A DNA stretch of 64,000 nucleotides from a virus. The translations under genes and the position numbers were made by a program. Shown here piece by piece: positions 18,749 to 56,440 of the stretch (position 1 is the stretch's first letter; the number at the start of each line of letters is the position of its first letter). Under the pieces are notes generated by a model, which was given only the letters and a program-made list of their open reading frames with translations, made no database searches and was not told the DNA's origin. The DNA lies in the IMG/VR virus record IMGVR_UViG_3300023174_000053, positions 96,001 to 160,000 of that record; one strand, given 5' to 3'.

Positions 18749-19803
18749 AATGATACATCAATCCCCTTTGTTGTACTGTAAACTTTACCATCACCAAAAT
18801 CAAAACGAGATTCACTAAATCCAAAATCATCGTCCATTTCAACTAATTCATTATCTGCTGTTGTAATTACATCAATTGAATCACCTTCATTGTGAGATTC
18901 AATTGATGTACCGTCTTGTCCTCTTAATACAGTTAAAATATTTCCAGAAATATTTTTGATATACATTTCCTCATTACTAATCATAATATAAGAATTATTA
19001 ACCAAGGATACAGCACTTGAAACATTAAATGCAGTTACTTTATCATCAATATTTTCAGCAAGTGTTGTGGTGTTGTCGTTATTGTAATCCTTAATTGCTC
19101 TTGGAGTAGCAGTATATCTCAATTGTCTTGATGCATTCTTTGTATCTGTATTTGTATAATAATCAACTTGGACTTTTTTGATTATTCCATCTGTACTGTC
19201 TGGAATTGGACCAAACAGATATGTTTTTGCTGTAAAGTTTAAAGTATATACCAAAGCTCTTCTTTCTTTGTAATCACTTTCATAATTATCTTCCATACTA
19301 ATTCCTTCCAAAATTACAGGAACATCCTTTTTTTCACCTATTGATGAAATCAAATTGATTGTTAATGAAAAACTTGGTTGAAATGCTGGAAGAATTTGTT
19401 CTACAATTTGAAGCATATCATCATTCAACTTAGTCATAATACTAAGTTGAAAACCAATATTATAAGGAACAGGCATAAAAACTTTAACTTGTTCTGTTCT
19501 ATCGGTAGTTTTTATTGCCTTGAATGTTTGCATAGCAGAAACTTTTCTGCTGCTATCATATTTCAAACTCGTCATCTCAAAAGACATTCGAGGAAGAGTC
19601 ATCGCAACTCTTTTTCTCAAATCTGGTTTTTGTTCTACTCTTGCTAAAAACTTTTGAATTGGACCATAAGCAATAGGAACTTTTATAAAACTATAATCAG
19701 TACCATCCTGCTCCTCGTGCTTAATGTACACTTCATTAAAAAGTGTACCAAAAGCAATGATGGTTTTTCTGATTATTTCATTGTAACTATAAGTTCCTAA
19801 CAT
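18745..19803 (-). CDS. g15: Tail sheath stabilizer/completion protein gp15
   Basis: IRKTIIAFGTLFN; VPIAYGP..KFLAR; TLPRMSFE; PVPYN; QIVEQILP.FQP. Confidence 0.95.
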   Translation of the reverse strand: MLGTYSYNEIIRKTIIAFGTLFNEVYIKHEEQDGTDYSFIKVPIAYGPIQKFLARVEQKPDLRKRVAMTLPRMSFEMTSLKYDSSRKVSAMQTFKAIKTTDRTEQVKVFMPVPYNIGFQLSIMTKLNDDMLQIVEQILPAFQPSFSLTINLISSIGEKKDVPVILEGISMEDNYESDYKERRALVYTLNFTAKTYLFGPIPDSTDGIIKKVQVDYYTNTDTKNASRQLRYTATPRAIKDYNNDNTTTLAENIDDKVTAFNVSSAVSLVNNSYIMISNEEMYIKNISGNILTVLRGQDGTSIESHNEGDSIDVITTADNELVEMDDDFGFSESRFDFGDGKVYSTTKGIDVSL

Positions 19804-54869: not shown

Positions 54870-55068
54870 TGTTCTCTCAGGGCATTTTTTATTATATATC
54901 CTTTTAAATCTTTATACAAAAAAATATTTGGGGCAGAATTTTTTTATTTGAAAGACAATTTCGAGCTCGTTTTCGGTCCGTTGTAGGTTAGGGTAGTGTT
55001 GCGTTTTTATATACGGGGGGCAACGGTTTATAATAAGAATACAACAACACAAAATATAACTGTCAAAC

Positions 55069-55585
55069 AGTGCTGTTGTATAAGAATAAACGAACAAGTA
55101 TAATAGTTTATAATCAGTACTGTTTGATTCTTAACTCATAATAATGGGGGGTGGGTATAAACAGCACTAAGTTAGATCGTGTATAAACGAAGGAAAACTG
55201 TATAAGAATAAAACAATACTGTGTGATTGTTATAACGAACTGTAGATCCTGGTTGGGTAAACGAAGATATTTGTAAAATATAAGATAGGGAGACTACAAG
55301 TTAGTACACAGAACTGTGTACAACGAATAGTATAGCACTGTTTGATTCTTATGTCAAATAAAGTGGGGGTGGGCACAAATCACAAAACTGTTATATTGTT
55401 GTGATATAACTGTTATATTGTTGTGCTATAAGACGAGCATATACTTATAGTGTGTGTATAACGAAGTGATATAACGAACTGTTATGTATAACGAACTGTT
55501 ATGTATAACGAAGTCTTATGACGAAGTGCTATGAATAACGAACAGTTTTCCACAAGTTATAACGAACCCTGTGGAGTATAACGAA
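55069..55585 (+). repeat. Co-oriented (TAT)AACGAA repeat array with 17-bp and 22-bp tandem units
   Basis: AACGAA at 55069, 55186, 55234, 55260, 55322, 55460, 55473, 55490, 55507, 55537, 55561 and 55580; ataacgaactgttatgt x2.5 (55471-55512); actgttatattgttgtg[a/c]tata x2 (55387-55430). Confidence 0.88.
55329..55357 (-). promoter_or_regulatory. Near-consensus sigma70 promoter TTGACA-N17-TATACT (extended TG) inside the non-coding locus
   Basis: Minus strand TTGACAtaagaatcaaacagtgcTATACT. Confidence 0.75.
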
Positions 55586-55756
55586 TAGTTTTCCACAAGT
55601 TTTCCACAGGTTTTGAATAGTTTTCCACAGGGCAAATCTTATAAACCCTTACAAACACTAAGAATACTCATAAACCTGTGGAAAACTATTATGTGGAAAA
55701 CTAACGACTTGCCCTATAGAAAACTGTTGCCTCCTGTGGAAAACTATTTTTCCACA
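55546..55756. promoter_or_regulatory. Cluster of eight perfect DnaA boxes of the cyanobacterial type (TTTTCCACA); oriC-like
   Basis: Forward at 55546, 55589, 55600, 55621, 55748; reverse (TGTGGAAAA) at 55677, 55692, 55735; degenerate copies near 55570 and 55715. Confidence 0.8.
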
Positions 55757-55815
55757 AGTATAATAACTATAAACATCAGCAGTTCTTATACTATTCCCTC
55801 CCCCCCTACCCTATA

Positions 55816-55873
55816 AGTCTACCGCGGAATCACTGAGTCTTACGAGACACTGTGCCAGTTCTCAAAGTGTCCT
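55816..55873 (-). promoter_or_regulatory. Box-type promoter firing leftward into the DnaA-box cluster
   Basis: GTGCCA-N10-TGTCCT (55852-55873) lies 30 bp from a minus-strand TAGACT (55816-55821), the same geometry as the other cassette promoters. Confidence 0.55.
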
Positions 55874-55963
55874 GCGTCTCATAAGTCTTACGAGTAACTA
55901 GCAAAAAACTCCCAAGACTCATAAGATGTATGAGTCTCATGGGTTTCATTGTCAATATGCCCT

Positions 55964-56022
55964 GTGCCAGTCCTATAAGTGTCTGTGAGGCACTTGACAT
56001 TTTTTTGTTCTTATGGTATAAT
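55964..56022 (+). promoter_or_regulatory. Perfect sigma70 promoter TTGACA-N17-TATAAT (extended TG) with upstream box; no downstream ORF
   Basis: TTGACA 55994-55999, TATAAT 56017-56022; GTGCCA-N10-TGTCTG at 55964-55985. Confidence 0.8.
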
Positions 56023-56236
56023 GCTCGCTTAGACAACAAGACCCAGAGGCATTTATAAGAGTATAAAGAGGGTATAAGCATCTTTATAATAACCTTTATA
56101 TAGCACAGTACAAAACACGTAACTATGTTTTTTAATACATTTAATTTAATTATGATATGTAACGTAATTGTGTTGTAATTGATAATCTATGCTTATGAGC
56201 ATGAGGAATAGTGTGTGAGAGAGTAGAGAGATAGAC

Positions 56237-56440
56237 TCAGTATCGCACATTAGATGAAGCAGCAATCAGTTCATTTTGAATATCTAGAACTTCGTATTCA
56301 TCATCACATGCATCTAAATCTACTGGTGCAAACTCATTCAGGTTGATTGTATTATCAGTATAGATGGGAGCATAGAATAGTTCATTCTCCTCACCTAACG
56401 TATAAACACAACCGTGATCTTCTTTGTGTAGGATAAGCAT
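56237..56440 (-). CDS. Small acidic hypothetical protein
   Basis: MLILHKEDHGCVYTL...; start trimmed to follow the stop of the upstream ORF. Confidence 0.65.
   Translation of the reverse strand: MLILHKEDHGCVYTLGEENELFYAPIYTDNTINLNEFAPVDLDACDDEYEVLDIQNELIAASSNVRY

Follow-up and report, generated by a model that had tools for sequence, protein, structure and literature searches.

A cluster of host-type DnaA boxes in a conserved non-coding control hub of T4-like cyanomyoviruses

A T4-like cyanomyovirus carries eight perfect copies of the 9-mer TTTTCCACA within 211 bp of non-coding DNA (55546–55756), at a control hub that separates early genes from baseplate genes. Coordinates refer to the window, i.e., the whole stretch of 64,000 nucleotides analyzed, which corresponds to bases 96001–160000 of a 171,027-bp IMG/VR virus record estimated to be 89% complete. 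TTTTCCACA is the cyanobacterial DnaA box and is bound by DnaA in vitro in Cyanothece (PMC4674748), which supports the identification of the motif made in a preliminary description of this DNA. Because the layout of the sites resembles part of a host origin, and because relatives retain them, this array is very probably where the host initiator docks on the viral DNA.

The 9-mer is found on the plus strand at 55546, 55589, 55600, 55621, and 55748, and on the minus strand at 55677, 55692, and 55735, each copy at the position and on the strand first reported for it. Given the base composition (genome GC 33.7%), 0.0029 copies are expected in 211 bp when both strands are counted, close to the initial estimates of about 0.003 copies and about 33% GC. 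The eight copies are the only ones in the window, and shuffled windows contain 1.97 on average and never more than 5. The genome-wide count that had been suggested gives 11 copies in the full record, 8 of which are in the cluster, and loosening the pattern to TTWTNCACA yields only dispersed single extra sites genome-wide. The stretch had been called non-coding, and its only ORFs are chance ones of at most 67 aa.

The boxes are arranged in two arrays that converge on a central spacer of 47 nt (55630–55676). On the plus strand, box 1 (55546–55554) is part of a composite ATAACGAA-CAG-box and is followed by a phased four-site array (55589–55629), in which the perfect boxes at 55589, 55600, and 55621 are accompanied by a weak site, TTTTGAATA, at 55611. 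The weak site has three mismatches and is in register with its neighbors, the start-to-start steps of the array being 11, 11, and 10. The plus boxes at 55546, 55589, 55600, and 55621 are separated by 43, 11, and 21 nt, which are whole helical turns. On the other side of the spacer are two perfect boxes on the minus strand, at 55677 and 55692 (55677–55700), and a degenerate minus-strand box with two mismatches, TTTTCTATA (55715–55723), which is included in a conserved CTATAGGG element. This site and the weak one at 55611 account for the degenerate copies mentioned in the preliminary description. The cluster ends with a tail-to-tail pair of perfect boxes, 55735 on the minus strand and 55748 on the plus strand, with a gap of 4 nt (55735–55756); in the alignment, this pair is retained in the window and in the relatives L128, L130, and L133. 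Spacings between boxes of the same orientation group at 11–12, 21–24, and 43–44 nt. The length and part of the sequence of the 47-nt spacer are kept in the alignment of close relatives, and the unwinding side of both arrays faces it, a geometry that is coherent and as yet unproven.

The cluster is included in an ORF-free, non-coding hub of 1.37 kb (54870–56236), delimited by the ORF list and by the PHROG matches of the flanking genes. All the credible genes of the window are on the minus strand, and the hub separates the last small ORF of the early type, which has its stop at 56237 on the minus strand, from a group formed by two small conserved ORFs, the phrog_1574 gene, and the baseplate genes gp25/gp6. 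The phrog_1574 gene codes for 250 aa, is annotated as a glycosyltransferase in some records, and is 79–86% identical to its versions in Synechococcus and Prochlorococcus myoviruses. The phage is recognized as a T4-like cyanomyovirus by its portal, terminase, and baseplate wedge genes, by psbA and psbD, and by a gp41-type helicase with a gp59-type loader. Along the plus strand come, in order, G-runs, a gene-direction promoter, an array of TATAACGAA repeats, the boxes, a C-run, a terminator, a backward promoter, and an A+T-rich tract; this architecture is kept in L128, L130, L133, and L143.

The TATAACGAA array is polar and iteron-like (55231–55585, plus strand). All seven genomic copies of the repeat are in the hub, on a single strand, with a spacing of 13–31 nt; they interleave with the first boxes, and two of them are fused to boxes as TATAACGAA-YAG-TTTTCCACA. 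The boxes are hence interleaved with a phage-specific motif, as had been noticed, and this motif is restricted to the hub. Repeats with a TTCGT(T) core also fill the hubs of relatives. The gene-direction promoter is of the sigma70 type (TTGACA-17-TATACT; 55329–55357, minus strand) and is conserved in the alignment. Directly downstream of it, a perfect palindrome, GTACACAG-AA-CTGTGTAC (55306–55323), is kept in close relatives; its position is operator-like, and it resembles the GTAC-type LexA sites of cyanobacteria. Past the boxes, a hairpin (55939–55913) followed by a T-run (55903–55939, minus strand) is conserved in relatives and has the features of an intrinsic terminator, by which it is predicted to end early-direction transcription. 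The backward-facing promoter is perfect (TTGACA-17-TATAAT; 55994–56022, plus strand), and both it and the start of its transcript, GCTxGCTTAGA, are conserved across relatives. Downstream of this promoter is an A+T-rich tract (56050–56170, plus strand) that is the least stable DNA of the hub. It ranks among the top 0.6–2.5% of genome windows by instability, 67–85 other regions being less stable, and includes a deeply conserved block, TTTTTTAATACATTT (56128–56142), which is kept in S-PM2, DSL-LC02, and L165.

The GCTxGCTTAGA start and the distal TTTTTTAATACATTT block that go with the backward promoter are conserved out to S-PM2, Syn9, and DSL-LC02, and this unit may correspond to an origin transcript or to an antisense small RNA that is conserved. 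The hub also has conserved homopolymeric runs, three of G on the plus strand and one of C (55015–55022, 55145–55155, 55364–55374, and 55796–55812). A transcript of the gene strand would carry GGGUAGGGGGGGAGGG just ahead of the boxes, with possible R-loop or G-quadruplex potential. A further promoter-like site at 55737–55764, overlapping the boxes at 55735 and 55748, is taken as a chance occurrence because it is absent as a conserved element from L133 and L143. No Rfam family is found in the hub; the search gave only sub-threshold miRNA look-alikes, which are due to the hairpin. Among GenBank phages, near or distant, none has nucleotide similarity to the hub except for box arrays in two microviruses.

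Relatives in IMG/VR were collected through the flanking phrog_1574 gene. Perfect boxes are present at the same hub in L128 (8), L130 (7), L133 (7), L143 (5), and L131 (3), and further in L026 (4), L139 (5), L140 (5), L153 (4), and L165 (7). When the five closest hubs are aligned, conserved blocks appear at the boxes, at the spacer, at the terminator, and at the backward promoter together with the initial bases of its transcript, whereas the flanks diverge; one box of L133 has changed orientation. In more distant relatives the flanks can no longer be aligned, yet the same module still has perfect boxes, which often flank the backward promoter and adjoin the TTTTTTAATACATTT block. Nearly all the boxes of the relatives' records sit at the hub. 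A total of 60 boxes is found in 744 kb of loci from relatives, compared with 5 copies of the reversed word, 10 on average for permuted words, and 7 copies of the E. coli variant TTATCCACA. Smaller versions exist in named phages: of the lab phages, S-PM2 has three perfect boxes (19231–19264) directly adjoining the conserved AT block and Syn9 has a pair in the same module (52565/52589), while two or three boxes are found at this place in DSL-LC02. Boxes are absent from Sf-FS3 and S-SSM7.

The boxes are nonetheless missing from most relatives. Upstream sequence of 2.5 kb or more is available for 40 relatives, among which 31 are devoid of boxes and 7 have at least three. An independent sample of T4-like loci was drawn with the 15-nt AT block, which has many chance matches in unrelated AT-rich viruses and left 31 usable T4-like loci; at least two boxes are found in 4 of these. 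A fuzzy search for short hub landmarks over 80 loci was too noisy for use. Since most relatives lack boxes, the box element is optional, i.e., accessory, and where it is present the number and position of the boxes vary. The expectation of conservation at the syntenic locus is thus borne out by box clusters at the same hub in relatives, although about three quarters of them are without boxes. Two local peculiarities deserve mention. In L165 (820–1060), a long tandem array of units of about 11–13 nt, of the CTTATAAACCT and CTTATAGAAACCT types, starts about 30 nt after the first box pair. In S-PM2, the RefSeq record (NC_006820, 19177–19333; L301:1678–1834) places a tRNA-Asn and a tRNA-Leu over the DnaA boxes; these annotations look spurious because ARAGORN detects no tRNA in a 4-kb stretch around the boxes.

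The likely host family considered here is that of a Cyanobium genome reached through the psbA gene of the phage. Close pairs of boxes on the same strand occur in 33 of its 151 genomes and in none for the reversed control. Three picocyanobacterial MAGs inspected at first showed no box clusters, but the wider family sample did. The cluster of G065 is situated some 190 bp upstream of dnaN; that of G127 takes up the thrC–dnaN gap, with 10 perfect boxes of either variant in about 270 bp. Box clusters at a dnaN-linked oriC, a premise of the preliminary description, are thus present in these two genomes of the likely host family. Whole host chromosomes contain 9–31 perfect boxes, with two to four perfect TTTTCCACA per host cluster. 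Phage and host boxes also share flank preferences despite very different GC contents: in phages, 64% of the boxes are preceded by G (−1) and 73% are followed by it (+1), the host values being 56% and 76%. The 11-nt tandem pair of the phage is present in six host genomes as well. When 851 nt of the hub are compared by BLAST with 301 host-family genomes, only the triple-box unit matches. The best match, 86% over 44 nt, is to part of the thrC–dnaN oriC of G127 and follows the same grammar, box-AG-box-GG-weak site-G-box (strong-strong-weak-strong). That host DNA resembles just this 44-nt unit agrees with the early remark that the cluster is not a simple host fragment.

Within the 171-kb record, no match is found to DnaA (PF00308), to DnaA domain IV (PF08299), or to dnaN/beta clamp (PF00712), so that the absence of dnaA and dnaN first stated for the window extends to the whole record. 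Host DnaA is the likely binder because of the shared G flanks, the triple-box match in G127, and the lack of a detectable phage DnaA. On these grounds the boxes are quite probably bound by DnaA. The analysis establishes the sites, their enrichment, their conservation with turnover, the host-like flanks and syntax, and the lack of a detectable DnaA of the phage; binding itself, and every step downstream of it, is inferred.

Similar arrays are found elsewhere. The gut Microvirus mar31 (MZ089777, 5.2 kb; L413:3162–3319) has eleven tandem GGTTTTCCACA with an exact period of 11 bp and one further box 39 nt on. The array is non-coding, lies between the pilot and capsid genes, and is a DnaA-box array in an ssDNA phage; since this virus is unrelated, it points to a shared host factor and not to a phage-specific protein. 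Among low-GC (Prochlorococcus-like) hosts, there is a second DnaA-box cluster that is not linked to dnaN, between cbiX and a DUF2811 gene (L415:1500–1545). It is also present in G094, G145, G016, G045, G103, G114, and G185, and has the strong-weak-strong grammar of the phage array.

Does the phage cluster represent an oriC? It is similar to picocyanobacterial oriC (PMC4674748, PMC8287927) in the 9-mer itself, the G flanks, the 11-nt tandem pairs, the strong-strong-weak-strong sub-array, and the box density (8 perfect boxes in 211 bp, compared with the 10 in about 270 bp of G127). With eight perfect TTTTCCACA, it is a host-consensus cluster of a box that the host family also uses in clusters. 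The phage differs from these origins in using TTTTCCACA only, whereas hosts mix TTTTCCACA and TTATCCACA, and in lacking TAG-type DnaA-trios with their GC spacer, an unwinding element beside the boxes, and dnaA/dnaN. As defined in PMC8287927, the basal unwinding system has at least three DnaA-trios (NAN) at most 16 nt 5′ of a box in its TGTGGAWAA reading, with a short GC spacer as a rule between trios and box. The oriC of G127 shows it clearly, as TAGTAGTAG-GCCC-box-box. The best candidate in the phage, a run of six trios 9 nt from the box at 55677, has a spacer rich in A+T and is unconserved among relatives. Runs of that length occur at 5.9% of random positions, eight boxes were tried, and the other seven boxes have at most three trios; the candidate is thus not above chance and does not make a convincing DnaA-trio unwinding element. 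The helix stability of the cluster (−1.25 kcal/mol per step) and of the spacer (−1.20) is average, the genome mean being −1.23. There is no easily melted DNA adjoining the boxes, the nearest such tract being at least 300 bp away and not unique in the genome. The phage arrays converge, whereas those of hosts diverge. GC skew is monotonic, with no origin signal, and is uninformative because all genes share one strand. In conclusion, the phage cluster is not a copy of oriC, because it has no convincing DnaA-trios, no adjacent melting DNA, and no dnaA/dnaN, and because its arrays converge. Of the oriC-like character attributed to it in the preliminary description, the host box in a cluster stands, and convincing trios, an adjacent unwinding element, the linkage to dnaN, and the diverging arrays are missing.

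The neighborhood of the boxes matches other origin designs in part. The arrays are flanked on one side by the TATAACGAA array and the gene-direction promoters, and on the other by the terminator, the backward promoter, and the A+T-rich tract. The oriF and oriG of T4 consist of a promoter and an A+T-rich downstream element and function without DnaA (PMC3016281). Like these R-loop origins (Kreuzer and Brister 2010, PMC3016281), the hub belongs to a T4-like phage, is non-coding, and has a strong promoter followed by an A+T-rich tract; as the boxes here, the T4 origins are non-essential and variable among relatives. The differences are that T4 uses MotA-dependent middle promoters and has no DnaA boxes, whereas the hub has a sigma70-type promoter with DnaA boxes 240–450 bp upstream of it, and its A+T-rich tract ranks only in the top 0.6–2.5% of the genome by instability.

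Iteron origins with auxiliary DnaA boxes provide a second parallel, as in P1 oriR, F oriS, pSC101, and RK2 oriV. Here too, a single non-coding block combines DnaA boxes with adjacent and interleaved direct repeats on one strand, the seven copies of TATAACGAA. However, the phage repeat is short (9-nt core), its spacing is irregular (13–31 nt), and this T4-like phage is lytic and has a replisome of its own. A scan of ten ORFs against PHROGs, including the larger ones that flank the hub, revealed no match to a Rep-type initiator.

DnaA boxes are known or proposed in the non-coding DNA of other phages, such as lambda and P1. In T5-like phages, the iss region has about eight DnaA boxes paired in inverted repeats, for which a function has been hypothesized (Davison, bioRxiv 10.1101/866236). 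Both arrays have boxes in inverted arrangement within a large untranslated region of a virulent phage, and both are conserved across relatives. The T5 boxes, however, belong to the enterobacterial variant, are degenerate in many cases, and occur in a terminal repeat linked to two-step injection, whereas the cyanophage locus is internal, at a promoter hub between early and baseplate genes, in a phage without two-step injection. Literature searches for DnaA boxes or DnaA in T4-like cyanophages, and for Syn9 start-site data, returned no relevant paper in the collection searched.

The explanation that we favor, tentatively and with somewhat less than even confidence, is that the boxes form an accessory element at which DnaA docks and thereby assists or times a promoter-driven origin of the phage, the promoters of the hub, or both. 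The eight 9-mers would be high-affinity sites for host DnaA in the single control hub at the early/late boundary. Early in infection, host DnaA would oligomerize on the arrays and bend or otherwise organize the hub. This would assist or time initiation at an R-loop-type origin akin to oriF/oriG of T4, and/or the firing of hub promoters, thereby coupling phage DNA replication to the DnaA state of the host, after which the gp59/gp41 machinery of the phage would take over. Against this reading stand the phage's own helicase loader and helicase, the variable number and position of the boxes, and the average stability of the cluster. The stronger proposition that T4-like cyanophages use host DnaA at the hub to fire or license a primary origin is possible but rather doubtful. 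If it were true, phage replication would be gated by the replication or ATP state of the host, and the two or three boxes of S-PM2 and Syn9 would be a minimal form of the same device.

Next in rank comes a DnaA-responsive transcription switch or insulator, in which DnaA would repress, activate, or road-block RNA polymerase where the early unit meets the hub or late promoters, and have no role in replication. DnaA is an established transcription factor and roadblock. The boxes lie between the early-direction terminator and the gene-direction promoters, and in L139 and L140 they lie between two forward promoters and flank the backward promoter. Yet no box overlaps a conserved promoter core (the overlapping site at 55737–55764 being unconserved in L133 and L143), eight phased sites exceed typical operator use, and the position of the boxes relative to the promoters varies, so a purely transcriptional role seems fairly unlikely.

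A DnaA sponge would have no function in cis: multiplying phage genomes would titrate DnaA off the host oriC and stop new rounds of host replication. The arithmetic makes this possible, with 8 perfect boxes per phage genome as against 9–31 per whole host chromosome, and the copy number would climb with replication. The preliminary description had offered a sink of this kind, modeled on datA of E. coli, where DnaA-ATP hydrolysis is IHF-dependent. The two are alike in being clusters of high-affinity boxes outside the origin that could lower free DnaA, but the phage array belongs to a promoter hub, in which its position and phasing are conserved. A sink needs neither a fixed position, nor helical phasing, nor a conserved 47-nt spacer, nor linkage to promoters. 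Moreover, S-PM2, Syn9, and DSL-LC02 keep just two or three boxes, too few for titration, and a single incoming genome would contribute little early in infection. Of the sink proposal, the box arithmetic therefore survives, and the fixed location, the phasing, the spacer, and the relatives with few boxes fit it poorly. A pure sponge is less likely than the docking element, and on the whole unlikely.

The boxes might instead be bound by a protein other than DnaA, from the phage or the host, that recognizes an extended motif such as AATAG-TTTTCCACA-GG or the composite TATAACGAA-YAG-TTTTCCACA. Conservation does reach past the 9-mer, with A at −2 in 75% and G at +2 in 60% of cases, palindromic pairs of boxes separated by 4 nt occur, and some boxes are fused to the hub-only TATAACGAA repeat; because of this partial fusion to a phage-specific motif, another protein may co-bind or compete. 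As a replacement for DnaA, such a protein is distinctly improbable. The core is the exact host DnaA box, the preferences at −1 and +1 match those of host boxes, the syntax of the sub-array is that of host oriC, and an unrelated microvirus has the same arrays. The phage is without a DnaA-like domain, and among the neighboring ORFs there is no candidate protein that co-varies with the boxes.

It is very unlikely that the inverted boxes serve as a structural element, forming a long hairpin or cruciform, in RNA or single-stranded DNA, that acts, e.g., as a processing site, a terminator, or a recombination hotspot. A stretch of 236 nt does fold at −86 kcal/mol (z = −9.1), with arms of 16–19 nt that are 95–100% complementary, but such pairing follows automatically from inverted copies of one motif. 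Some relatives have arrays of direct repeats only (three boxes in the same orientation in L131, three at a 12-nt period in L037), no Rfam family is matched, and the arrangement of the arms shifts between relatives while the 9-mer stays perfect. Least credible of all is the idea that a piece of host oriC was captured and persists as a neutral passenger, since the 86% match to the G127 thrC–dnaN oriC covers just 44 of 851 nt among the 301 host-family genomes, and the boxes stand in a 33% GC context with interleaved phage-specific motifs and no host genes nearby and are perfect across relatives whose flanks have diverged.

Cyanomyoviruses are among the most abundant viruses of lakes and oceans, and to our knowledge none of their replication origins has ever been mapped. 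Textbook accounts of T4-type phages describe replication that is independent of an initiator and starts from R-loops or by recombination. Conserved sites for the host initiator at one non-coding hub provide a concrete locus and a concrete host factor, and the smaller versions at the same module of S-PM2 and Syn9 make the question accessible in culture. If DnaA acts at the hub, phage replication or the switch between early and late expression would be linked with the host's cell cycle and its energy state, for example to the light-dependent replication of cyanobacteria. If the boxes are a decoy, they would shut off host initiation by DNA alone. Either outcome would be new for T4-like phages.
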